DNA of 64,000 nt. Origin: Nitrospirota bacterium (lineage in GTDB: Bacteria > Nitrospirota > UBA9217). A model generated the notes under the pieces. It worked only from the letters and a program-made list of their open reading frames with translations, did no database searches and was not told the DNA's origin. The stretch spans positions 928,001 through 992,000 of the forward strand of contig CAWFSF010000006.1 of the NCBI GenBank assembly GCA_963818475.1, in the 5' to 3' direction. Position 1 is the stretch's first letter. Each line of letters opens with the position of its first letter. A program made the translations under genes and the position numbers. Shown piece by piece: positions 38,250 through 50,285 of the stretch.

Positions 38250-39642
38250 ATGAGCAAGGTTTGGTACAATTTTTTCGAATGCAATGCCGCTTCGCGAGAT
38301 ATCCTTAGAAAGGATGTCATTGAATATCTCGTGCAGTCGGGCATAGAGATGCTCGAACTTGATCATGATAATCAGTGTGGAATTGGACTTCTTTTTTTTC
38401 ATGAGTTCTCGGATCGGCTGTGTAAATTCATAGGAGATGTCAGCCGGAACGGCATCAGGAGGGTGCTCTGCGCTCGCTTATGCCCGGTCCGCGTTAGAGA
38501 GCGATAATCCCTGGAAATTGCTGCAAGCAGGCGTTTCCGATGTCATTGCTCTCGATTCCTCAGTCGATATCTCGGAAAAGATAAGCACGCGCCTTGAACG
38601 CTGGATCGCAGTAGAGCATCTGATCGATAGCCCCGCGGTCTGCGAATCCCTTATCGGACAAAGCCCGGCATGGCGGTCGGTATTGCGGCAAGTTGTTGAA
38701 GTCGCGCACTTTACCGATTCAGCGGTATTGATCACCGGGGAAACCGGAACCGGCAAGGAGCTTGCTGCGCGTCTGATCCACACCGTCGATCCCAGGAAGG
38801 ACAAGGGCGACCTCGTCATTCTTGACTGTACGACCATTGTCCCGGAATTGTCCGGCAGCGAGTTCTTCGGCCACGAACGCGGCGCCTTCACGGGCGCCGT
38901 CGCATCGCGCGACGGCGCCTTTGCGATGGCAAATAACGGGACATTGTTCCTTGATGAGGTGGGAGAGTTACCTCTTAAGCTGCAGGCGCAGTTGCTTCGG
39001 GTAGTGCAGGAAAAGACATTCAAGCGCGTTGGAGGGAATGCCTGGCATTCCACGAACTTCAGGCTCGTTTGTGCAACAAACAAGGACTTGACGAAGGAGG
39101 TTCAACGCGGTGAGTTCCGCAGCGACCTGTATTACCGAATCGCCAACTGGACCTGCACGCTGCCGCCGCTGCGGGACCGGAGCGAGGATATCCTTCCTCT
39201 GGCCCGTCATTTTATAAGCGAACTGACCACTGGGAAAGATATGCCCGAACTGGACAAACTCGTTCGTGAATGCCTGCTCGTGCGAACGTATCCCGGCAAT
39301 GTGAGGGACCTGAAACAGCTTATTTCCAGGATCATGTGCAGATATACGGGAAAGGGGATGATCACCGTGGGAGACATCCCCGAGGAAGAACGGCCGCATG
39401 GAGCGATCAGCTCTGCTACCTGGTGCGACGGCCAAATGGAAAATACCATCCGCCAGGCATTGCTCCAGAATGTAGGGCTGAGAGAGATCCGCGGCGTCGT
39501 GGAAAAAACCGCCATTGATATGGCCATCAATGAGGCTGACGGCAATCTGCAGCGCGCGGCCAAAAAACTGGGCGTGACCGATCGTGCGTTGCAGCTGAGG
39601 CGTGCAGCGGATCGCTCCCGACTGGAAACGGGGACAAACTGA
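38250..39642 (+). CDS. sigma-54-dependent transcriptional activator (bEBP), frameshift near 38469
   Basis: ITGETGTGKEL, SEFFGHERGAFTGA, LFLDEVGEL, FRSDLYYR, YPGNVRDL, C-terminal HTH; atypical N-terminal domain. Confidence 0.92.
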
Positions 39643-39692: not shown

Positions 39693-40463
39693 TTATCGTT
39701 GGATACGCGCCGGATGTCTTGGGTGAGAACCTGCGATCAGACGCATGATATTGCCGCCGAGGACATTGTCTTCATCCGATCTCGACAATTTCAGTGCATA
39801 TATCTTCTCCATTTCAACTTCGGGATGGAGCCAGGGGCCGTCGGTTCCGAACAATATCTTATGTGGCCCGGCCTGATAAACTGCTGCTTTAAGCTGATCA
39901 AAGAACCTTACGCCTGACGTATCGGTAATAATATTCGGATATCTTGACAAAAGTTCAATGAACATTCTCTGCACTCTTGAATCGTCATTAAATGTCCCGA
40001 GATGGGGGATGATGAAGGTCACGTCCGGATACTCGGAGGCCAAAGTTGGAATGATGGCTACTTCTCCCATGATGTCATACAGCACGGGTAGCGACAGCGC
40101 CCGGGCAGTCTCGCAGACTTCTCTTGTTATGACGGCGTCACGGCGGTGAACCTTGATGCCGCAAAATCCGTATTCTACGACAGTTTCCTTTACCATCCGG
40201 TGTATTCTTCCCCTGTCGCGAAACGCATGAACGAATGCAAAGCCGTAGAATCGGACAGGATCCCGCGCAATAATGCCCGCGACCTTCCTGTTCGCGGTCT
40301 GATAGTCCGAATGGAAAGGCGAGAAGAGGATGGTTCGGGCGATGCCGGCTTCTGATGCGCGCTGCAGATACCGCTCAAGCGGCAAATTTAATTGTCCTGG
40401 ATCTGTAAAATCCGCTCCAGTGCCGGCATGGCAGTGGGAATCAATGATTAGTGTCGGTTCCAT
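39693..40463 (-). CDS. Amidohydrolase_2 family metal-dependent hydrolase
   Basis: IIDSHCHAG, GIKVH, FIIPHLG, DTSG, KILFGTDGPW. Confidence 0.88.
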   Translation of the reverse strand: MEPTLIIDSHCHAGTGADFTDPGQLNLPLERYLQRASEAGIARTILFSPFHSDYQTANRKVAGIIARDPVRFYGFAFVHAFRDRGRIHRMVKETVVEYGFCGIKVHRRDAVITREVCETARALSLPVLYDIMGEVAIIPTLASEYPDVTFIIPHLGTFNDDSRVQRMFIELLSRYPNIITDTSGVRFFDQLKAAVYQAGPHKILFGTDGPWLHPEVEMEKIYALKLSRSDEDNVLGGNIMRLIAGSHPRHPARIQR

Positions 40464-40819: not shown

Positions 40820-42592
40820 TCATGCGAGTATCTGCTTTGCGTGTGAGTACGAATTCCCGATCCTGCTTCCGTATTTTTCATACTGACCGAAGCCGTTGTA
40901 GTACTTGGCAAATTCCGGCCACTTATGCTCACGGAGATGTTTGATGAGATATCCTTTCTTCGGTGCTTTCTTTTGCTTGCAGAAGTCAAAGAAGCCGAGA
41001 ACATGAGCCCGTTCACTGGCCTGGAAGGCATCATACATCGCGCGCGGAGATGAGTATCCGATCAACCGATAGTTGGCAACCAATATCTGCGGGCCGCCGA
41101 TGCTTATACATCGTAAGGCAATATCTTCACCGGCAAGCCTTGACGCGAGGGATAGGACCCTATATTCGAGTGCTTGATTACCGTGAAATGCCTTGAACGC
41201 TTCGGTTACGTTTTCCCTGAACTGGTGATTATGCCAGCTCTTGCCTGACATCCCATTATGCCCCCAGTGCCGGAAATACTGATTGTAGGTATTCTGATTG
41301 GATTTCCCCCACAACTTATAGAATAAGTGGTTTTCAAATCTGATGATTGCCTTGCCAGTTGTATGGCTTCGGCCTCCGCTTTCGATCTGCCAAACCGCGA
41401 GAGCGGTCTCAGCTTCGATCCTAAGCTCGCTTGCCGCTGCCCGCATTAATCCCCCAAGGCGATTGTATGTTCTTGCCAGGCTTTTGCGGACTGAGGTCCA
41501 TTTCGGATTGATGGTTACCGAAGTACCGGGCTTTAAAGGCGAGGCCTTTAATCGAGAAGAATCTTTATAAAAAGAAGCTTGTTGGTTGCTCTGTTCTGAA
41601 TCCAGCTCTAAAAGCCCTGTATCTTCGAATTGCGAACCAGTCGCTTGATCTGCAAGCTCTTCCCAGGTTTCAGGTTCTTTGAAATCTTTATGGTCGGAGA
41701 ATTCCATGCCGGTGTATCCGGGGGTGATGCTGCTTTCCTGATCCTCAAAATATTCAAATGACTCGAAATCTTCAGACGACTCAGGGTAAGTCTCAAATTC
41801 CTTTGCAGTCGCCCTTGCCCGATTCCGCCAGGAATCCGGGATCGGGTTCCCGAGTCCTATCTTATATCCGAGTCCGCCGTCTTTCAGGCGTAGATTAGTA
41901 ACAGCCCAGTGGCCTACGTGATACCAGATGTCCGGCCCGGGACAATTCTCACGGGTACTGGCTGCCTGACGGTGAGCGAAGATGTGCGTCAGCCCGATCT
42001 TCTTTATAAGGTGTTTGACAAGGAAACGACCCGCCTCGATCTGCGCCTGTGACAGCTTGTGGCAGCCGTACTTGCCTGCCTCCCAGCATTTTCCCCTTAC
42101 ATTGGGAAAGTTTCCGGCAAATTCGACAGCCACGCTTTTTCGATTAAATCCATTCGATGCCCAGAGAAGGGCGGATACGGGATGCAGTTGGAGTATTCTG
42201 CCATTTGGCAGAATGGCATAATGCGCCGTAACTTGGTTATATCGATCAGGGTTGTTGCCCCGGCTGAATGCCATCTGATGCAACACCAAAGCCTTCACCG
42301 TGCTTGGATCACGGCGGCCTTTGCGCCTGTCTTTACGAGCGACATTCGTGCGGTCCTCTATCCGAAGCCCGCTCGTCCCGACGACTTCCTGCTCCGTATC
42401 CGGCAATTCAAGAACATCCAATTCGAAATTGTCTTCAAAGTCTTCCTGGTTCATTTTGGTGTCAGGCATTTCACTGTCTTCTGATTCGAATAAATCCTCA
42501 AAGTCTTTCTGATCATCATCGGCAAGCTCGAGCGTGTCTTCGGATTCTTCGTATTCAAAAGGCTCTTCTTCTATCTTCGGTCTATAACTCAT
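40820..42592 (-). CDS. Acidic-leader protein with Amidase_2 and DUF3380-type N-acetylmuramidase domains
   Basis: LVLHQ, AHYAI, VAVEFAG, AHRQ..CPG; AVWQIESGG, IRFENHLF, GGPQIL..NY, FAKYYNG. Confidence 0.82.
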   Translation of the reverse strand: MSYRPKIEEEPFEYEESEDTLELADDDQKDFEDLFESEDSEMPDTKMNQEDFEDNFELDVLELPDTEQEVVGTSGLRIEDRTNVARKDRRKGRRDPSTVKALVLHQMAFSRGNNPDRYNQVTAHYAILPNGRILQLHPVSALLWASNGFNRKSVAVEFAGNFPNVRGKCWEAGKYGCHKLSQAQIEAGRFLVKHLIKKIGLTHIFAHRQAASTRENCPGPDIWYHVGHWAVTNLRLKDGGLGYKIGLGNPIPDSWRNRARATAKEFETYPESSEDFESFEYFEDQESSITPGYTGMEFSDHKDFKEPETWEELADQATGSQFEDTGLLELDSEQSNQQASFYKDSSRLKASPLKPGTSVTINPKWTSVRKSLARTYNRLGGLMRAAASELRIEAETALAVWQIESGGRSHTTGKAIIRFENHLFYKLWGKSNQNTYNQYFRHWGHNGMSGKSWHNHQFRENVTEAFKAFHGNQALEYRVLSLASRLAGEDIALRCISIGGPQILVANYRLIGYSSPRAMYDAFQASERAHVLGFFDFCKQKKAPKKGYLIKHLREHKWPEFAKYYNGFGQYEKYGSRIGNSYSHAKQILA

Positions 42593-42607
42593 AAGCGGCC
42601 TCCCTGT

Positions 42608-42856
42608 TCATTGCGTACGAGAAAGTGCACATAGAGCGATATCTTGCTGCGGCCATTGCTCCGCAGCTTGTCCATCTAAACGGAATCCCATGATTTCCCG
42701 CCGGAACTACCTGATCGGTCTCGACAAGCTAGATGTCGGTATTTGGATCATCGATCCTGATGGAGGCCGCGCCTCCGCGTTCACCTGACTCACTTCCAGA
42801 ACAGCAGATGCAGAACTAAGCTTGCCCTCATTTGACGTGATAGAAATAGTAGCCAT
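42608..42856 (-). pseudogene. Degenerate short ORF remnant
   Basis: RBS AGGAG and ATG at 42856; protein-like segment GGAASIRIDDPNTDI*LVETDQV interrupted by a stop and frameshifts. Confidence 0.4.
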
Positions 42857-42931
42857 CGTATTTCTCCTGTAAGTTGGTGTGGTTCGAAAAAATTCACTCC
42901 AACGCTATTTTTCTTACTCGCAAAGAGGTCT

Positions 42932-43921
42932 TCAATTAATTATTCGTTCGTAAAGCCCCGCAACTTGTTTCCCATTGCTACATTTCAGCCAAAGCCTTCT
43001 GACGAAGTGGATTTTCTGCCTTGTCCCCAGGTGAGTGACCGGGCTCGATCCCGCGGCTGGAAGCTTCCCCCCTAAGTGCACAGGATTCGAATCATTCAGT
43101 TTCACTACAAATTCGTAAGCTGGAAATAGATCCACATATCCAAGAAAACCAATATCAACGTAGTTGCGCGCTACTCGCTTGATAAAGAAGGTGCCCTCGT
43201 AATCGATTTTGGCGTTCAATAGAAACTGCCCGACTTTCTTAATAGTCTTTGATGTTGGACATGCCGGCCCTTGCGATCCTTTGACACGAATCATTATCTC
43301 CTTCGCCGGTGTGACGCCCAAAAACGAGAAATTCATCGGTGACGTAGACGAGGTTCCTCTACACAAAACGAGGCCAGTCATGCAATCAACTTGAATGGTA
43401 GGGTCAATGCGATGATTTTGATAGATGATGCGAGGCTTATCCAGGTCCATCTTTGTCTCAGAATGCATTCTTGATGACGCATTAATATCCGGGCTCAATG
43501 ATCGTTGATCGGTAAGACCGCAAAAAAATTGTGTGACGAACATAGTCTTTCCCGCCATGCTAGGGTCCAGCTTTACGATAGAGTCAGGAACCTTCCTGGT
43601 CAGGCCTGAAACATCTCTCGGAATGAATGCATTCAACCAAACTGTGACGGTGCGAATACGATTTTCGCATGTCGGCAGCGCATCAGTCACTTCATCGAGT
43701 GCAGACTCATATTCCCAATCTGAGGTTTCGGTGCCACGAAATAGCGACTCGTCTTGCAGTTGATCATCCGATTCAGAATCAAACGACCAGCTTTCCTCTT
43801 CGCCGTATTCTGGGAAGATGTCCTGTGTCTCCTCCGAGAATTCGTCGAACGACTCAAGCGTATCTTCGAACTCGAAGTTGGTCTCCAAGGGTTCGATGTC
43901 AAATTTATATACGTTTTTCAC
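42932..43921 (-). CDS. Acidic-leader protein of unknown function (C-domain possibly DUF3238-like)
   Basis: GTG start after GGAGG; ~80-aa D/E/F-rich leader; WLNAFIP, TDQR, SSRMHSE, FPAYE. Confidence 0.7.
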   Translation of the reverse strand: MKNVYKFDIEPLETNFEFEDTLESFDEFSEETQDIFPEYGEEESWSFDSESDDQLQDESLFRGTETSDWEYESALDEVTDALPTCENRIRTVTVWLNAFIPRDVSGLTRKVPDSIVKLDPSMAGKTMFVTQFFCGLTDQRSLSPDINASSRMHSETKMDLDKPRIIYQNHRIDPTIQVDCMTGLVLCRGTSSTSPMNFSFLGVTPAKEIMIRVKGSQGPACPTSKTIKKVGQFLLNAKIDYEGTFFIKRVARNYVDIGFLGYVDLFPAYEFVVKLNDSNPVHLGGKLPAAGSSPVTHLGTRQKIHFVRRLWLKCSNGKQVAGLYERIIN

Positions 43922-44066
43922 ACCCACCTCCAAAATTTCGCTCAACTCATTCTTTTAGATGCCGCAGCGGTTTTCGTGCGTTACGGCCTTGCCGCCTGAT
44001 TCACCCTGCGAAAGTGAGGCGCGCACCACTCCTCGGGTTACGCCCGACCCCCTCTGTTCGAATAGT

Positions 44067-45605
44067 TCAGCGGGCCTTCTTCCCGACAGCCATCTCAAGC
44101 GCCCGAATCCCTTCAGCGCGGAGGTGGTCGACAAACGATCGAAAAGCATGACGTGTACCGTGGATTTGGATGGGACCTTCGGTGACCGGGTCTTTAACAT
44201 CGCGCAATCGAGCGAAGAGCCCATCGGCAATCCCCTGCTTAACCGTGACATCGACCTCCTGGTACGCGATCTCGCCCAACTGGCCCCACCGCCACTCGAG
44301 TGGTGATGCGCCACCTCCCCCGGGCAAGGGAACATTTGCGCCTGCTGAGCGATCTTCCTTGGGCACGAACCCCCTGGCAGCAAAAACAGGTGTTCCAAGA
44401 GCTTGCTTGACAGCATCAGTCCGCTGCGAAAGTGAGAGAGAACGACCTGCCAGCTTGCGGCCGACGCCCCGAACTCGCTCGAGGTCGCGAAGCGACGTGA
44501 TGACAGCGGCAGTCGCCATCATCTTGGTAGTGGATCCCGCGGCGCTTGTTCCGAGATGAGAGTCACCGACCGCGGTCCATCGGTAGCCGCCCTGAATTCT
44601 CTTCCCATCGTGATCCATGTCCGAGACGACGCGAAGGCCTCGGTTGTCTAGATTGTGCAACGCCAGGCTTACGATGTCGCCCAAGGAGAAAGTCCTTACC
44701 GCCTCCCCGCCGAGTTTTGAAGCGCGCTCCTTGATCTTCGCCTTGGTGAGCCACGACAACCACCATGCTAATGGAGGGAGCCGCTGACGCTCGTCCAGAC
44801 GGTCGTACATAAACTTGGCCATGTAACGGAGGAAGCGATCGGTCGAGTCGGGTATATGGCGCTCGTACCACTCTCGAATTGACGCGCGAGGCGTGCGTAC
44901 GTGGCCGGCAGCGAACATGTCTGTGAGGAAGTGATGGCCGAAAGCCTCCTTTGTCAGCGCTCTTCGCCACGCGCTCTGGCTAGCCTGCTCGCCGGCTTGA
45001 AGCGAATCGGCGATAGCTTTCGAATGCCATAAGACGTAGGCCTCCCAGGCACTGCCGCCAGCGGAGAAATGGGACAGGTTGCGGCTGGCGAGGACGTAGT
45101 ACCGCTCACGAACAGCGTCTTTGACCTTGTCTGGCACCTGCGGCTCCGGTACCTTTGGCTTGTGTCTCTTCAGATCGAGTGCCTGCCATCGGACCCAGGC
45201 GATCATGGCTCTCCCGGTTGGTGTGCGGGTGAGGTCCTGCATCTCGTCGTAGGTCCCGAAGTAGTCCCCCGCAAGGGCCACCACCTCTCCGAAGCTCAAG
45301 CGCTGGCCGCGTTCGCCGTAGACAATCGTTGTTGGTTCTCGACCCGAGGCCAAGTCACCAATGTCGCGATGCTCCGATCCGATGAAGTGTTGAACAGCAT
45401 CCGCTGGCTCTAGTGAGAGCTGAGAGGCCCCGTTCTCGAATCCCTCGTTGAGGCCCAGATCGAATAGCTCGTCAAGGAACTGCGCTTGGCCGGCCTCTTC
45501 CTCCCATTCCCAGTCGGCCAGCTCGGTATCAAACGTTTCGGACTCTTCATCGAATTCCGAATTAGTCTCAAACGGCTCAGACTCGATATTAAGCTCGTAC
45601 CTCAT
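44067..45605 (-). CDS. Acidic-leader protein with Zn-dependent phospholipase C-like domain
   Basis: EHRDIGD, FGEVVALAGDYF, NLSHF, EAFGHHFLTDMFAAGHVRTPR, LHNLDNRGL resemble Legionella/Pseudomonas PC-PLC motifs. Confidence 0.72.
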   Translation of the reverse strand: MRYELNIESEPFETNSEFDEESETFDTELADWEWEEEAGQAQFLDELFDLGLNEGFENGASQLSLEPADAVQHFIGSEHRDIGDLASGREPTTIVYGERGQRLSFGEVVALAGDYFGTYDEMQDLTRTPTGRAMIAWVRWQALDLKRHKPKVPEPQVPDKVKDAVRERYYVLASRNLSHFSAGGSAWEAYVLWHSKAIADSLQAGEQASQSAWRRALTKEAFGHHFLTDMFAAGHVRTPRASIREWYERHIPDSTDRFLRYMAKFMYDRLDERQRLPPLAWWLSWLTKAKIKERASKLGGEAVRTFSLGDIVSLALHNLDNRGLRVVSDMDHDGKRIQGGYRWTAVGDSHLGTSAAGSTTKMMATAAVITSLRDLERVRGVGRKLAGRSLSLSQRTDAVKQALGTPVFAARGFVPKEDRSAGANVPLPGGGGASPLEWRWGQLGEIAYQEVDVTVKQGIADGLFARLRDVKDPVTEGPIQIHGTRHAFRSFVDHLRAEGIRALEMAVGKKAR

Positions 45606-46701
45606 GACTTACCTCCAGGATTTTTGCCTTCGCGCTCCTGTTTCGTGCGATGCGCGCGAGCGCGTCCACCGCAAGGTCGATATCGCCTTGCCTGAGGAGT
45701 GCCGTAATGAGAAAACTGATGCGTGGGCGATGGCCATTGCGCCCGCGATGCAGTACCGTCCGAATCCCACATTGCAGCAGGCGGTCGTAAAGCGTTTCCG
45801 CGTCAAGCCCGGATGCAGGCACGAATGTCTGGACCGGGAACAAACCGCCGCTGGTTAAGAAACCGGCATGTGCCATGCGACTGCGGAAACGACGCACCAG
45901 ATGGGCGAGACGCAATCGCAGCTGGTCGCCATACTTCAGGTTTGCAACAAGAGCATGCTCAGCGGCATGGACAACTGCAAGGGAAGGCGGGCTGCAATGA
46001 ACCCTCGTTTCGCTCTTCTCTTCGAACCAGCCCACCATCCTGCTGCTTCCTGATAGGGCGGCTGCAGGAACGCCGAATCCCTTGGCCATCGAACTCGCCA
46101 TCAGCACATGAGGGTTCTGTGCGTTATTGCTCCACTGGAGTATGCCGCCGCCACCCATGCCATAGGGGGTTTTTTTTTCCGGCGAATGCCCCAATATCCC
46201 GAGTGATTGTGTGTCGTCCAGGATCAGCAGCCCGCCCGCGTCCCGGGCAAACGCCGCATATTCTGAAACAGGCGCGGGCTTTCCGCAGGCCGGACAAAAG
46301 CCGTCGGACAGGATCACCGGCCGCCTGCGGTGATTCGAATCATTTTTCATTACTGCCTTAAGGGCATCAGGGCGATAGTGAGCAAAAGTCCTGACGGGAA
46401 CACCGCGCGATGCGGCGCGTTCCACTCCCCACCGGGCGATCGGGTAAACACCCGCGTCCATGTAAATGGCGCTGTCATACTTGTCGAGAATGCCGAAAAG
46501 GTCCCAGAACAAATGCAGGGTGGAGGGAGCAAGTACTGCCCGCTCGCAACCCTGCAGCTCCGCCAATTTCCGGGCAATCGCGCGTGCTTCCCGGGGCTCT
46601 TGCAATGCCGCAGGGGCGCCAAACGTCAGCGTCTCCCACGGACGAAGGCTGCGGCTCGGGTGATGCATGCCGAGATAGAGCGCAGAACTGAAATCCATCA
46701 T
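45589..46701 (-). CDS. PLP-dependent class I/II aminotransferase-fold enzyme (BioF/AONS-like, divergent)
   Basis: DFSSALYLG, FAH, LSDGF, LILDDTQSLGILG, GGG, SMAKGFG (Schiff-base Lys), PVQ. Confidence 0.8.
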   Translation of the reverse strand: MMDFSSALYLGMHHPSRSLRPWETLTFGAPAALQEPREARAIARKLAELQGCERAVLAPSTLHLFWDLFGILDKYDSAIYMDAGVYPIARWGVERAASRGVPVRTFAHYRPDALKAVMKNDSNHRRRPVILSDGFCPACGKPAPVSEYAAFARDAGGLLILDDTQSLGILGHSPEKKTPYGMGGGGILQWSNNAQNPHVLMASSMAKGFGVPAAALSGSSRMVGWFEEKSETRVHCSPPSLAVVHAAEHALVANLKYGDQLRLRLAHLVRRFRSRMAHAGFLTSGGLFPVQTFVPASGLDAETLYDRLLQCGIRTVLHRGRNGHRPRISFLITALLRQGDIDLAVDALARIARNRSAKAKILEVSHEVRA

Positions 46702-46711
46702 GACGTGCTGC

Positions 46712-48193
46712 CTATCTGCGCTGCAACTGCATCTCCAAACGCCTGCTCAAATGGACCGACGGTTTAGTTGCATCCACCTTGCCGTTCACGACGGGATTAG
46801 CCAGGTCAACGCCAGTGGCGATCCGATAGGCGTGCGCATAGCTCTGGATCTCGCTTCTCCAGTACAGTGCCCAGTTCCTCGCTTCCTCGGCGTCGTTTAC
46901 GTTGTTCCAGTCGCCGTAACGGATGGACAGGAGTATCTGCTCGCCGAATACGCCCAGGTCGCTGAAATGCATGGCGGAGACATCCGTCCATCCCTGAATG
47001 GTCTTTAACGCGTCAACTGCGGACATCCAGCCTTCACGGTAGGGCATCATCGGTCTGCGGCCGAGGAACTCATGCATCTCAGGCCTCGACAGCAGCCATT
47101 GCTGCATCAGCATCTCCACGCGGGCCTGGAAAGGCAGGTCCCCAAACTGATTGTGTGCGCCCTCCGCAAGGAGCATATGCACTTCCTTAAGCGCGTTCAG
47201 GAGCGGGAACGGGTCCGGGACCATCAGCTTGTTGTTTTCTTCCTTGAAGAAGATCATGCATCTGTTTAGGAGGTTGTGAAACGCTTCGATGAACTTCGAG
47301 CGGCTGTCGGCGGTTTGCAATACCGGAACCGCCTTGCCTATGAGCGTAAGCCCGTACTCATGATCGTACTCATAGGCGCGGCGCTGCATGGACAGGCGGT
47401 TGTGCTCGTCTTGAATGTAACCCCAGAGCAGGTTGCTGAGAGGACGAAGCGGACTGAGCGTGAGGTTTGCCAGAGGGTCCCTGGACGACATCTTCTTGTT
47501 CTGGAACCGCAGGCTGATCGCATTGATCGCCTGGGCAAGCATTCCCTCTTCGTGCCAGTATGACCAGATCAACTCGATCATACACGGGTTATTCACCCGG
47601 TTATCGATGACAAGATTACTGTCGTCGCAAAAGATGCTTTTAAGGCCTGTCTGCAGATTTAAGTTGTTCAGAATTCTTTTGAGATAGGGAAGTTGAGGAT
47701 TGCCATCAAAGTATTGATCCACCAGGTTCTTCAGCTTGTCCATCAGGTCTGCTGGAGTATCTATCTCCCACCCGAGCCGCTTCTTTTCGTTCTCAAAATC
47801 GCCGTCAAGTCGCACGGTATCCAGTGCATTTGGCTGCTCTCTCGTGATGTCGATTCTTACGGAGGAGCACGCATACAGCATCAGGAAAAGCTCTGTTGCG
47901 GCCTTAAGTGAATCGTAAGAATGTACTCCTTTAAAGCACCTGTCCGTGTCACTTTTTTTATCAAGCCCTGCCTCGGTGATTTTTTTACTGATGTTCGCAT
48001 CGACATTCTCTTGTTTAAACTCCTGACATGCGGCTGACTCAGGAGCGGGCCTCTCAGGACATATGGCGCATTTTAAAAAATCTTGATAGTTACTAAAACT
48101 GATGGTTTTTGTCCGGAGTCTTATTGCAGTGTTCAGTGCTTGCCCGGGTGTTTCGTATCTTTTAGATTCAAGGCTAAAAATGTTGTCAGTCAT
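46712..48193 (-). CDS. Hypothetical protein, 493 aa, Trp-rich C-terminal domain
   Basis: Long ORF with RBS AAGGAGG in operon; IELIWSYWHEEGML, RRAYEYDHEYGL, EGAHNQFGDLP; no recognised family. Confidence 0.85.
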   Translation of the reverse strand: MTDNIFSLESKRYETPGQALNTAIRLRTKTISFSNYQDFLKCAICPERPAPESAACQEFKQENVDANISKKITEAGLDKKSDTDRCFKGVHSYDSLKAATELFLMLYACSSVRIDITREQPNALDTVRLDGDFENEKKRLGWEIDTPADLMDKLKNLVDQYFDGNPQLPYLKRILNNLNLQTGLKSIFCDDSNLVIDNRVNNPCMIELIWSYWHEEGMLAQAINAISLRFQNKKMSSRDPLANLTLSPLRPLSNLLWGYIQDEHNRLSMQRRAYEYDHEYGLTLIGKAVPVLQTADSRSKFIEAFHNLLNRCMIFFKEENNKLMVPDPFPLLNALKEVHMLLAEGAHNQFGDLPFQARVEMLMQQWLLSRPEMHEFLGRRPMMPYREGWMSAVDALKTIQGWTDVSAMHFSDLGVFGEQILLSIRYGDWNNVNDAEEARNWALYWRSEIQSYAHAYRIATGVDLANPVVNGKVDATKPSVHLSRRLEMQLQRR

Positions 48194-48208: not shown

Positions 48209-49531
48209 CTATATTCCCGTTGAGTGTAGTTCTCTTAACGGCCGTTCACTCGACCGCTTCGAGCAGTTCGCTGAAGTATCGAGCGCGTTTTTCAGCGCCC
48301 ATTGTTTGAGCAACTCTGCCAGTATGCCGCTTTCCTTTTCCGGCGTTATCCTTCCATCACCCCGTGCCTGCCCGATTGCCGCGAAAACCAGGGACGGCTT
48401 CTCTGTCAGCATTTGTTCTGGTGAAGATCGCCATGACTCATAGAGTTCCTGCAACTGCTGAGGCCGGTGTTTACCGCACCTGAGTACTTCCATTACCGAG
48501 CTGCCGCGTAAAGACTTCGGCCTGTGGTTCACGAGCAATGTCACAAAACCCGGCATGGTGGAAAGCAGGCTCGAGATCGCCCGCCTCTTTTCCTCGGGAA
48601 GACCCGCAGCCGGATACAGGGTTTCCCATAGTTGAGATAGCCTTGCCCACTGCGGGTGAGGGTAAAGCGCATTCCCGATTGCGCAGCTAAGTTTCACGCG
48701 TATCCACGGAAACGGGTGCGGGTCATCGAGTGTGAACCTGAAAACAAAGGCGCGGGGGAGGCTGACCACGCTTATGAGTCCGAGCGTGGAAGCAATGCCT
48801 ATTTTCGCAATTGCCCAGAAGTCTGCAAGGATCTCGGAAATCCAGCGATCCCAGAGGCTCCAGGCGATGGCTTGATCGCCGCCGCTCTTCTGCAGACCCT
48901 GAAGTACCTCCCGTACGGACTTTACCAGGTCGAGCAGCGCTGAGCCCTGATGTCCTACCTCGTGTATCAGTGAAGAGGCGATCCCGCTGCCGACCATCCG
49001 CTCGCGGGGGACACGGATGACGGCAACAGGGTTTTGAGCGCCGCCCGGCAACCTCGTTCGTGCCCGCCGGATCGCCGCGCCGTGGCCCCGGTCAAGATAG
49101 CATACGACCGGAGGAGGCTCATAATAATGGCCTTCGATCCGGAGCGCGTCGGCTGAAACAACATCGAGGCCGGAAAGCCAGATCCCTGTTTCCTGTTCGC
49201 TCCGCTGATTCAGCACATCCGCAAAGATGTCGAATTGAGATAAGACATTATTGAATCTCATCCGCAGAATCGTGAATCTTCGCTGCGCTTCCGTCGCAGA
49301 AATACGCTCAACCCCGCCTTGTTCGAGCCAATGGTAGTAGCTGTGGATCATCTCCCGTAGCTGCGCATTTCCGGTCGCAATAGACTTTTCAATTGCATAG
49401 AGCGCGTTCGGTGAAATAGCCGCTGCCGGGACCATGGGCATGGTGAGAGAAAATGACCTCACCCTGTCCAGCCGCGCCAACAGCGCACGTGCTTCCTGCA
49501 AGAGGAAGGAATGAGCTACGCTGCCGTTCAT
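48209..49531 (-). CDS. Putative HEXXH zinc metalloprotease of unknown family
   Basis: SLIHEVGHQG followed by WISEILADFW and DPHP; start overlaps upstream stop (ATGA). Confidence 0.7.
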   Translation of the reverse strand: MNGSVAHSFLLQEARALLARLDRVRSFSLTMPMVPAAAISPNALYAIEKSIATGNAQLREMIHSYYHWLEQGGVERISATEAQRRFTILRMRFNNVLSQFDIFADVLNQRSEQETGIWLSGLDVVSADALRIEGHYYEPPPVVCYLDRGHGAAIRRARTRLPGGAQNPVAVIRVPRERMVGSGIASSLIHEVGHQGSALLDLVKSVREVLQGLQKSGGDQAIAWSLWDRWISEILADFWAIAKIGIASTLGLISVVSLPRAFVFRFTLDDPHPFPWIRVKLSCAIGNALYPHPQWARLSQLWETLYPAAGLPEEKRRAISSLLSTMPGFVTLLVNHRPKSLRGSSVMEVLRCGKHRPQQLQELYESWRSSPEQMLTEKPSLVFAAIGQARGDGRITPEKESGILAELLKQWALKNALDTSANCSKRSSERPLRELHSTGI

Positions 49532-50217
49532 GCATAGATACCATAGAGAATTATTTTATTGCCGCGGCGAAGCCATCGGCCGCTGCTCCGGGGGCGGCGC
49601 CCGCCTGCGCCCGAAGAACCATAGGGACGCTGCATTTTGCTGATCAGGCCTGGCGCGTGCCGCTTTGCGGCCTCAATTACCGCCGTTTTTGCAGCATTGA
49701 CCGGGGGCACCGAAGGCGACGCAGCGGCTGCGTTCTGGGCTGCAGAGCCGGCAAGGCGGACAACCCTGCGGGCAACTTCGAATTCTTGATCTTCCTGGCT
49801 CAGTCCCTCGAGTTCGAGGCCGAACATGCTCCCTGCCGACGATGCGAGCTTACTACCGATTGCAGTGCCGATGCCTGGCGCAACCATTGATCCGAGAGCG
49901 CCTCCGGCAATCGGAAGCGCTTTTTTGATAACGCCCTTGAGCATGCCTCCCAGGGGAGAAGCGACTCTTTTTATACCTCTTCCAATTTTCCTGAATACCC
50001 CTCCCAGAAACTGGTCGAGTTCCGCTTCGTCTGAAATTTCAAGAAGCTGAGAGGCCAGCTCCATCTCTTCGCCTTCACTGAATGGACTCTCCTGGTCGCC
50101 GACTTCGCCGGAGTCGAATTCAAAATCTTCGCCTTGCAACCCTTCTTCTGGATCAAACTCACCTTCGAAGCTTTCTTCAGGTTCAAATTCCGCCTGTGTA
50201 CGATCTAAATCGTGCAT
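49528..50217 (-). CDS. 229-aa protein: acidic N-terminus, cationic amphipathic helix, Gly-zipper, basic C-tail
   Basis: MHDLDRTQAEFE..ELDQFLGGVFRKIGRGIKR..GGALGSMVAPGIGTAIG..FGLELEGLSQEDQEFE..SGRWLRRGNKIILYG; RBS AAGGAGGAG. Confidence 0.88.
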   Translation of the reverse strand: MHDLDRTQAEFEPEESFEGEFDPEEGLQGEDFEFDSGEVGDQESPFSEGEEMELASQLLEISDEAELDQFLGGVFRKIGRGIKRVASPLGGMLKGVIKKALPIAGGALGSMVAPGIGTAIGSKLASSAGSMFGLELEGLSQEDQEFEVARRVVRLAGSAAQNAAAASPSVPPVNAAKTAVIEAAKRHAPGLISKMQRPYGSSGAGGRRPRSSGRWLRRGNKIILYGIYA

Positions 50218-50268: not shown

Positions 50269-50285
50269 AGCAAGATACATGCCGG
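50269..50285 (-). promoter_or_regulatory. sigma-54 (-24/-12) promoter
   Basis: Minus strand CCGGCATGTATCTTGCT = GG-N10-GC, close to consensus TGGCAC-N5-TTGC, ~50 nt before ATG 50217. Confidence 0.8.

Follow-up and report, generated by a model that had tools for sequence, protein, structure and literature searches.

An acidic N-terminal leader on unrelated cargo proteins of a Nitrospirota operon: a possible pro-region and docking tag

Three adjacent genes in a 64,000-nucleotide stretch of DNA from a Nitrospirota bacterium (assembly GCA_963818475.1, contig CAWFSF010000006.1, positions 928,001 to 992,000; hereafter the window) encode proteins which begin with the same acidic, aromatic-rich leader and continue into unrelated bodies. 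These genes, g5, g6 and g7, belong to one minus-strand operon that runs from 50217 down to 39693 in the order g1, g2, g3, g4, g5, g6, g7 and Amidohydro_2; we refer to g1–g4 as the core and to the region between the core and the amidohydrolase gene as the cargo slot. The similarity of the leaders in the window proteins is real and far from chance, and in the sequence that we examined the leader is restricted to the cargo slot beside the core. We tentatively regard the three N-termini as one case of a conserved module, at least some 45 residues long, which is found strictly at the N-terminus. The reading that we favour, with reserve, is that the leader may act as a system-specific pro-region and docking tag on the exchangeable cargo of a self-contained, horizontally mobile and sigma-54-controlled operon, and that it is probably removed by g2.

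Acidic N-termini of g5, g6 and g7

The motif shared by the three N-termini had first been pointed out from the letters of the window alone (the original prediction), and all three copies are present on the minus strand as quoted there. The N-terminus of g5 reads MRYELNIESEPFETNSEFDEESETFD and includes WEWEEE, that of g6 reads (M)KNVYKFDIEPLETNFEFEDTLESFD and includes DWEYES, and that of g7 reads MSYRPKIEEEPFEYEESEDTLE. The leader of g5 (512 residues; 44067–45605) comprises residues 1–60 (45426–45605), with LNIESEPFE as motif 1 and FDTELADWEW as motif 2, and is the top match of the A6 profile described below (40.0 bits). That of g6 (329 residues from a GTG start; 42932–43921) comprises residues 1–85 (43667–43921) and has a shortened motif 1 (FDIE-PLE); it scores 13.4 bits with the window-seeded profile and lies under the A6 threshold. 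That of g7 (590 residues; 40820–42592) comprises residues 1–70 (42383–42592), scores 20.7 bits with A6 and is followed by a basic stretch with a net charge of +7 in residues 81–100. The GTG start of g6 at 43921 is preceded by GGAGGTGG, and the ATG of g7 by GGAGG.

The acidic tract had been put at 60–80 residues, and the net charges of successive 20-residue segments bear this out (−6, −9 and −5 in g5; −4, −7, −9 and −6 in g6; −6, −9, −7 and −5 in g7). Each such segment contains two to four F, W or Y residues in g5 and g6; in g7 the numbers are three, two, two and then none in residues 61–80. The bodies behind the leaders are indeed unrelated, the best E value between them in BLASTP being 0.15, with no match of g5 to g7. 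The original prediction also held that the first gene of the operon starts in a similar way. This is correct for composition, in that residues 1–72 of g1 have a net charge of −26, but not for the motif: a profile–profile comparison of the leader with g1 (hhalign) gave a probability of 0.3%, which rules out g1 as a carrier of the cargo motif.

Profile searches

For comparison we used 80 loci around homologues of g3, one genome per species, in which the flanking sequence extends up to 10 kb to either side; these are the best 80 of 245 confirmed places. In the counts given here the loci and the window together are termed sources, of which 69 have at least 2 kb and 51 (50 loci and the window) at least 8 kb of sequence downstream. 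A loose regular expression for the motif was unspecific (77 forward versus 34 decoy matches), and profiles were used instead. One was seeded with the three window leaders only and iterated, its threshold being the best score of a reversed-sequence decoy. The other, A6, was made from a curated alignment of 30 leaders with the decoy maximum as its threshold, and was also run over 1.84 billion representative proteins (E ≤ 0.001).

The original prediction had proposed enrichment of a leader hidden Markov model near homologues of the core as its check, and the outcome is strongly positive. The A6 profile gave 45 matches, 42 of which lie downstream of the core and in the coding orientation; two lie in the acidic part of g1, one is antisense and none is upstream. 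At least one match is present in 26 of the 69 sources with 2 kb or more downstream. The window-seeded profile gave 28 matches in the 80 loci and the window: 24 are coding-strand matches located downstream of the core, four are antisense inside g1 and none is upstream. Four of the 24 are in the window, and one of these four is probably spurious.

The position of the leader is equally consistent. The downstream A6 matches begin at profile position 1 or 2 in 35 of 42 cases; of these 35, an ATG or GTG falls exactly at profile position 1 in 34 and a Shine–Dalgarno-like motif precedes the start in 33. Among the 1.84 billion proteins A6 found 20 matches, every one of which runs from residue 1; one is g5 and another is a close fragment. 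No hydrophobic segment of the Sec/Tat type (15-residue window, Kyte–Doolittle mean of at least 1.8) occurs within the first 85 residues of any of 35 leader open reading frames (ORFs), and the median net charge of residues 1–40 is −9. A test of composition that ignores the motif (first 30 residues, net acidic charge of at least 7 and at least three F, W or Y) was passed by 25 of 86 cargo-slot ORFs, three of them the window's own, compared with 3 of 402 control ORFs (Fisher p = 1.2 × 10⁻¹⁷). Two of the three passing controls resemble extra g1-type or acidic genes.

The similarity might in principle reflect chance in acidic low-complexity sequence or a recent local duplication, as the three genes are adjacent and low-complexity regions align readily. 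However, reversed-sequence decoys never reached the scores of the true matches, independent matches occur in other phyla, the global matches all start at residue 1 and the bodies are unrelated. Chance or duplication therefore has almost no probability as an explanation, and we consider it refuted by the decoy-controlled profiles, the composition test and the global scan.

Sequence motifs of the leader

Motif 1 lies at residues 5–13 and its consensus is M-[KRN]-x-[PQ]-F-[ND]-F-E-[AV]-E-P-F-E-x-[YD]-S-E-F-D-E, with the short degenerate form M-[KRN]-x-x-[FL]-x-[FLI]-E-x-E-P-F-E. Motif 2 lies at about residues 25–32, with the consensus F-D-T-E-L-A-D-x-E-W and the short degenerate form [FL]-D-T-E-L-x-D. 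In many relatives the leader ends in W-x-G-E-x-x-R or E-h-R-R-G-R, at which the sequence switches from acidic to strongly basic, and the next element is either PG_binding_1 or a basic stretch rich in Arg and Pro. A sharp acid-to-base junction within the first 130 residues was found in 14 of the 86 cargo-slot ORFs and in none of the 402 controls. In some proteins the leader motif occurs twice in tandem.

These features bear on the view that the leader is a mere intramolecular inhibitor or solubility tail, with no dedicated reader, which general proteolysis would remove or extracellular cations would displace. In favour of this view are the length and biased composition of the acidic tract, the like order of acidic and basic parts in g1, which lacks the motif, and the fact that cargo and controls can be told apart by composition alone. 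A charge tail would not, however, keep the position-specific motifs 1 and 2 across phyla, nor would it duplicate in tandem as a unit, and we consider the explanation very improbable.

Variant leaders include MTSYFEFETIP in Bradyrhizobium, MSxRFDFEAYDEQPF in Acidobacteria and MNxxIDxxEExPDIDxE in Nitrosomonas, and it is because such variant acidic leaders are present that many loci have no canonical match. We also note a protein in locus L075 (13843–15804) in which a g1-type pro-region (…ESPFSEAEEIALAAELLSLSSDEELEQFLG) is joined to an OmpA domain, and acidic N-termini of an 'ESPF' type on several homologues of the g5 body. Together, these observations suggest that the system has a second class of leader.

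Cargo domains

Of the 132 ORFs that occupy the cargo slot, 69 have domains which bind or cleave the cell wall. PG_binding_1 is present in 49 ORFs, and OmpA, VanY/M15, M23, M74, Amidase_2, Muramidase, Glucosaminidase, CHAP, 3D and Rv2525c-like domains also occur. M20 peptidases, which have no leader, account for 10 of the 132 and Trypsin alone for three; 45, many of them doubtful ORFs, have no family. The leader matches from the 1.84 billion proteins show the same kinds of domains. In the window, g7 carries Amidase_2 and N-acetylmuramidase domains (Pfam E values of 1.2 × 10⁻¹⁵ and 1.5 × 10⁻²⁸) and matches PHROG endolysin families. No family is assigned to g6, and neither g5 nor g6 has a match in Pfam, NCBIfam, PHROGs or the PDB. 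Homologues of g7 occur in five of the 80 loci, and homologues of g5 and g6 in none (tblastn).

In g7 a further acidic, aromatic-rich stretch, at about residues 262–335 (about 41588–41809, minus strand), separates Amidase_2 from Muramidase and has no match to the leader profile. It looks as if two cargo genes had been fused, the second keeping a leader-like linker.

The body of g5 is toxin-like and belongs to a family of at least 160 proteins. Among the 120 listed, DUF4157 is present in 35 and PG_binding_1 in three; the leader is present in 10 of 119. The available part of one paper describes DUF4157 as the N-terminal HExxH domain of toxins associated with extracellular contractile injection systems (eCIS; PMC8213781), and that of another as the releasing peptidase of polymorphic toxins of the Photorhabdus virulence cassette (PVC) type (PMC3482391). 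As the same body stands behind DUF4157, PG_binding_1 or the leader, the latter behaves like an address module that can be exchanged for others. This arrangement, the enrichment on the cargo side of the core and the position at the start codon all support the original suggestion of a dedicated targeting or recognition signal.

The invariant H and D residues of the g5 body (window 44067–45395) fall in EH, SHF, HFLTDMFAAGH and HNxDN. They resemble the description of Tox-HET-C, kin of phospholipase C and S1-P1 nuclease, in the available text of PMC3482391; Pfam gives no match. Small HEAT-repeat proteins of 142–160 residues directly follow the cargo in L005 (16327–16752) and L028 (14063–14542) and are possible immunity or adaptor proteins. 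With regard to a cognate immunity gene, clustering shows no conserved small neighbour, HEAT-repeat ORFs occur in two loci and the window has only a pseudogene remnant.

The nature of the cargo invites a different reading of the leader, in which it acts on the target cell as an unstructured translocation domain that engages an envelope protein of the victim, so that cell-wall enzymes enter a foreign periplasm after lysis of the producer. Colicin M, pesticin and pyocins carry TonB or Tol boxes at the extreme N-terminus, which is also where the leader is found. The cargo would need to reach the periplasm only, with cell-wall domains in over half of the cargo-slot ORFs; the 80 loci have no conserved immunity-like neighbour and no exporter, and the R/P-rich basic segments behind many leaders could aid crossing of the outer membrane. 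Nevertheless, the motif is nearly identical in at least eight phyla and scattered over the g3 tree, so a receptor would need equal universality. A pure import signal would also not need to stand beside the core, the only place where the leader occurs in the sequence examined. We judge import into a target cell to be improbable.

Core proteins and proposed mechanism

The core is conserved: in the 80 loci tblastn finds g3 in 80, g2 in 77, g1 in 73 (often in two or three copies) and g4 in 50. There are no Pfam or NCBIfam matches for g1, g2 or g3. Gluzincin-type metallopeptidases combine HExxH with a downstream Glu as the third zinc ligand, and g2 (440 residues; 48209–49531, minus strand) has this arrangement as HEVGH (190–194) and E233…D237; it is thus a predicted metallopeptidase. 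His190, Glu191, His194, Glu233 and Asp237 are invariant in 149 sequences. The median isoelectric point (pI) of these 149 homologues is 10.0, compared with 6.0 for g3, and the basic g2 therefore suits a leader of net charge −9 better than the acidic g3 does. At least 5699 homologues of g2 exist, all of them unnamed; in the ESM Atlas g2 falls in unnamed clusters only, and the nearest named families, M48 and U49 (score 0.77), are a lead only.

The g1 proteins have a fixed start, MHDIDRT. In the window g1 (229 residues; 49528–50217, minus strand) begins with MHDLDRT, and both its start and its ribosome-binding site were identified. The acidic, aromatic pro-region ends in ELDQFLG (ELDQFLGG in the window) and is followed by a Lys-rich glycine-zipper segment and a LELEGLSxEDQEFEVA block; the later segments carry charges of +9 and +8. 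Matches to PHROGs are confined to glycine-rich regions of tape-measure proteins (E = 4 × 10⁻⁴). The C-terminal motif of the window protein is GRWLRRGNKIIL (49528–49584, minus strand); its general form, GRWxRRGxxI[IV]L, ends three residues before the stop codon in 84 of 93 core matches, and the decoys gave no match. The same motif is also seen near the N-terminus of five cargo-slot proteins (in L024, L027, L047, L068 and L077).

In the mechanism that we propose, the cargo would be synthesized in the cytoplasm and carry neither a Sec nor a Tat signal, and the acidic leader would keep it soluble and inert, masking the basic segment behind it in many cargos, much as the acidic pro-region of g1 would mask its cationic glycine-zipper part. 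The leader would dock on the core, most probably on g2, and when the system fires g2 would cut the leader at or near the acid-to-base junction. Passage through the inner membrane would use the membrane-active part of g1 once freed of its pro-region, as a pore or by lysis, and no ATP-driven translocon. What the sequences show directly is the motif, where it stands, its confinement to the cargo slot, the conserved core, the kinds of cargo and the lack of signal peptides; binding to g2, cleavage, masking and release through g1 are the steps that we infer. In loci with the canonical leader g2 is more similar (63.0 versus 59.0% identity, p = 3 × 10⁻⁴), as to a smaller extent is g3 (59.0 versus 57.5%, p = 0.015); these values are not corrected for phylogeny, and we take them as a weak hint in favour of the proposal.

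Several observations weigh against this proposal. General masking of charge is excluded because only 13 of the 35 leader proteins have a net charge of +5 or more in residues 41–100, while nine have −5 or less; in the window g5 and g6 have no basic stretch, and masking does not apply to them. No canonical match was found in 43 of the 69 sources with at least 2 kb downstream. The loci at L021 (7209–9492) and L057 (10799–13224) have a full core and PG_binding_1 cargo with basic, G/Y/R-rich N-termini but no acidic leader, so the core has work that is independent of the leader. The hydrophobicity of g1 reaches a maximum of 1.32 over 19 residues, in the glycine-zipper segment, and nowhere attains the level of a transmembrane helix. 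Searches with g2 of Pfam (E ≤ 0.01), NCBIfam and the PDB found no peptidase relative, and the idea that g2 is a free-standing DUF4157 (PF13699) was rejected when hhalign aligned eight columns around HExxH only, with a probability of 1%. The proposal also offers no role for g3, g4, the amidohydrolase or M20.

A highly constrained core protein, g3 (493 residues; 46712–48193, minus strand), shows about 50% identity across phyla and has at least 4795 homologues. An AlphaFold2 model from a 146-sequence alignment is all-α, with a predicted local distance difference test (pLDDT) score of 88.8 and a predicted TM-score (pTM) of 0.91; it supersedes a poor model from 15 sequences (pLDDT 45.7). Fold searches found no relative in the PDB (best E value 0.28, TM-score at most 0.16) or in BFVD (best E value 0.23), and the ESM Atlas gave no usable match. 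Sequence searches of the PDB with g3, g2, g5, g6 and an alignment of the g5 body with DUF4157 found nothing significant. Many g3 relatives have an extra β-sandwich domain (PF13620).

These properties of g3 are among the arguments for a loading model, in which the leader serves export or loading by addressing the cargo to a translocon, cage or particle formed by g3, g1 or both; the leader need not then be cleaved. The model follows eCIS payload packaging domains and encapsulin targeting peptides. A confident fold without relatives under strong constraint is what would be expected of a self-assembling part, and the β-sandwich domain on many g3 relatives fits as well. The strictly N-terminal position, the parallel conservation, in different phyla, of the motif and of a core which is itself about 50–60% conserved, and the sharing of the g5 body with eCIS-type toxins also favour loading. 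On the other hand, no ATPase, membrane, tail or shell gene is conserved in the 80 loci or present in the window, the acidic g3 is ill-matched to a peptide of net charge −9, and an acid-to-base junction together with a peptidase encoded in trans looks more like processing. In our view loading is rather unlikely, and we retain the pro-region and docking tag as the favoured reading.

Taken as a whole, the operon could represent an undescribed system for delivery or programmed release, although we hold this with considerable doubt. Such a system would consist of a metallopeptidase, an all-α protein without a known fold relative and a glycine-zipper membrane protein made as a pro-form; a universal acidic N-terminal signal would recruit the cargo of cell-wall hydrolases and toxin domains, and there would be no ATPase, Sec/Tat route or tail particle. 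It would have spread horizontally over at least eight phyla.

Relation to described systems

One of the closest parallels is the packaging domain of PVC payloads, an N-terminal stretch of about 50 residues which is predicted to be disordered and is described in the available parts of PMC10097599 and PMC11495950 as necessary and sufficient for loading. The operon resembles it in placing an N-terminal stretch of similar length on unrelated cargo. However, PVC loading requires the Pvc15 AAA ATPase and a phage-tail particle, neither of which is found in the window or conserved in the 80 loci. The Pnf signal of PVC is basic (PMC11495950, as far as its available text goes) and the leader of the operon acidic. 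What is available on PVC further describes disorder and divergent N-termini on related payloads, in contrast to the leader motif, which is sharply conserved across phyla.

DUF4157 polymorphic toxins are alike in having an N-terminal trafficking or processing module ahead of a variable C-terminal toxin, and, according to the available parts of PMC3482391 and PMC8213781, in having an HExxH peptidase; an adjacent immunity gene is often missing beside such toxins. The occurrence of the same C-terminal body with different N-terminal modules, a feature of polymorphic toxin systems (Zhang et al., 2012), is seen for the g5 body. OmpA-type and glucosaminidase 'toxin' domains of PVC-type toxins (PMC3482391, available part) recur in the cargo slot. 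The differences are that the peptidase is part of the toxin there and is supplied in trans here, that g2 is a separate protein without detectable homology to DUF4157 beyond the zinc motif, that the leader is a short acidic peptide and not a folded domain, and that these toxins have no counterpart of g1 or g3. Membership of the eCIS or polymorphic-toxin classes therefore fails, because the defining partners (tail particle, Pvc15-type ATPase and DUF4157 homology) are missing. An encapsulin cargo peptide is likewise a poor comparison, as there is no HK97-fold shell: g3 is all-α without a fold match, and scanning the window ORFs with Pfam brought up none of the encapsulin families.

Holin–endolysin cassettes and type 10-like release systems pair signal-less cytoplasmic cell-wall hydrolases with a small membrane-active partner. 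The operon has signal-less muralytic cargo, an endolysin-type match for g7 and a small, putatively membrane-active partner encoded upstream. It differs in that g1 is probably not a classical holin, having no segment of transmembrane strength but a 72-residue acidic pro-region, and in having several diverse enzymes, a peptidase and g3 in the core, sigma-54 control and no prophage context. Anionic pro-pieces are found on cationic antimicrobial peptides, and pro-peptides on zymogens, with eukaryotic examples. Here too an acidic part precedes a cationic segment, in g1 and in the cargo ORFs with a sharp junction, and a protease is encoded alongside; unlike the leader, though, such pro-pieces are not known to act as a common addressing motif on unrelated enzymes.

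Double-glycine leaders, found on class II bacteriocins and NHLP/Nif11 precursors, have a GG cleavage motif and are served by an ABC exporter with a C39 peptidase. The end of the g1 pro-region in the window, ELDQFLGG, has E, L and an aromatic or aliphatic residue at the intervals seen in such leaders, but other residues take the place of the second glycine in relatives (FLGK, FLGD or FLGN) and no C39-peptidase ABC exporter was found in the window or the loci. Neither a curated family nor a solved structure was found for g1, g2, g3 or the leader, and literature searches, which did not extend to full texts, yielded no paper on any of them or on the gene set.

If the proposal is correct, thousands of environmental bacteria, among them nitrifiers, methanotrophs, rhizobia, Geobacter relatives, Acidobacteria, Planctomycetes and Verrucomicrobia, would have an unrecognized way to arm and release cell-wall-degrading enzymes and toxins. 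The core families are many thousands strong, and for one of them, g3, neither the PDB nor BFVD holds a relative in fold. A single functional frame would then accommodate dozens of peptidoglycan-binding proteins now called 'hypothetical', and the leader, where present, would mark candidate antibacterial enzymes. The leader itself would be an address tag simple and portable enough for fusion to other proteins.

Operon organization and distribution

The layout of core followed by cargo recurs in the 80 loci, which represent at least eight phyla. In the 51 sources with at least 8 kb downstream, a homologue of the amidohydrolase lies downstream on the same strand in 45, and a homologue of a sigma-54 activator lies downstream on the opposite strand, in convergent orientation, in 49. 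All-against-all clustering of every ORF of at least 100 residues in the 80 loci found, beyond the core, the amidohydrolase and the activator, only an M20 peptidase cluster (eight loci); within the flanks of up to 10 kb there is no conserved ATPase, transporter, membrane protein, tail or shell gene. Pfam scans of the window ORFs likewise show no tail, shell, encapsulin or Pvc15-type AAA gene.

The g3 tree mixes phyla: Methylobacter groups with Nitrosomonas communis, and Limisphaerales group with Haliangiales, each of these groupings being fully supported. This indicates that the whole module has spread horizontally. The canonical leader is scattered over this tree (18 changes, compared with 19.6 for shuffled labels); the module is thus mobile and the leader is old within it. 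In a plasmid collection, a g3 query found four records (megaplasmids of Rhizobium, Ensifer and Paraburkholderia), in which the matching regions are unannotated.

A promoter of the sigma-54 type (GG-N10-GC; GGCATGTATCTTGC) is located at 50270–50284 on the minus strand, 66 nucleotides 5′ of the start codon of g1. The pattern GGCA[CT]N5TTGC occurs within 200 nucleotides upstream of 15 of 65 g1-type starts, compared with 65 of 13,676 background windows of 200 nucleotides (0.5%). The convergent sigma-54 enhancer-binding protein of the window (Pfam) is encoded at 38437–39642 on the plus strand and, from the annotated ATG, has only about 70 residues before its AAA+ domain. In all seven relatives scanned the N-terminal 125–145 or so residues have no Pfam domain, with no receiver, GAF or PAS domain.

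The remaining core gene, g4 (370 residues; 45589–46701, minus strand), encodes a divergent BioF/Kbl-like pyridoxal phosphate enzyme, whose Pfam and NCBIfam scores are far under the family cut-offs. In the window protein and 26 homologues from the loci the SxxK lysine is present in 27 of 27, as is DD[TS]Q, at the place of which BioF/Kbl-like enzymes have a histidine. The operon ends with the Amidohydro_2 gene (39693–40463, minus strand; Pfam). PADLOC gave no matches among the seven operon proteins.

Between g6 and g7, a frameshifted and truncated gene remnant occupies 42593–42860 on the minus strand, with its pieces in three reading frames. The parent gene, of 172–184 residues, is intact in L063 (17260–17775) and L073 (6917–7468). 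In the window its first 49 codons still form an ORF, and the Shine–Dalgarno site has been kept.

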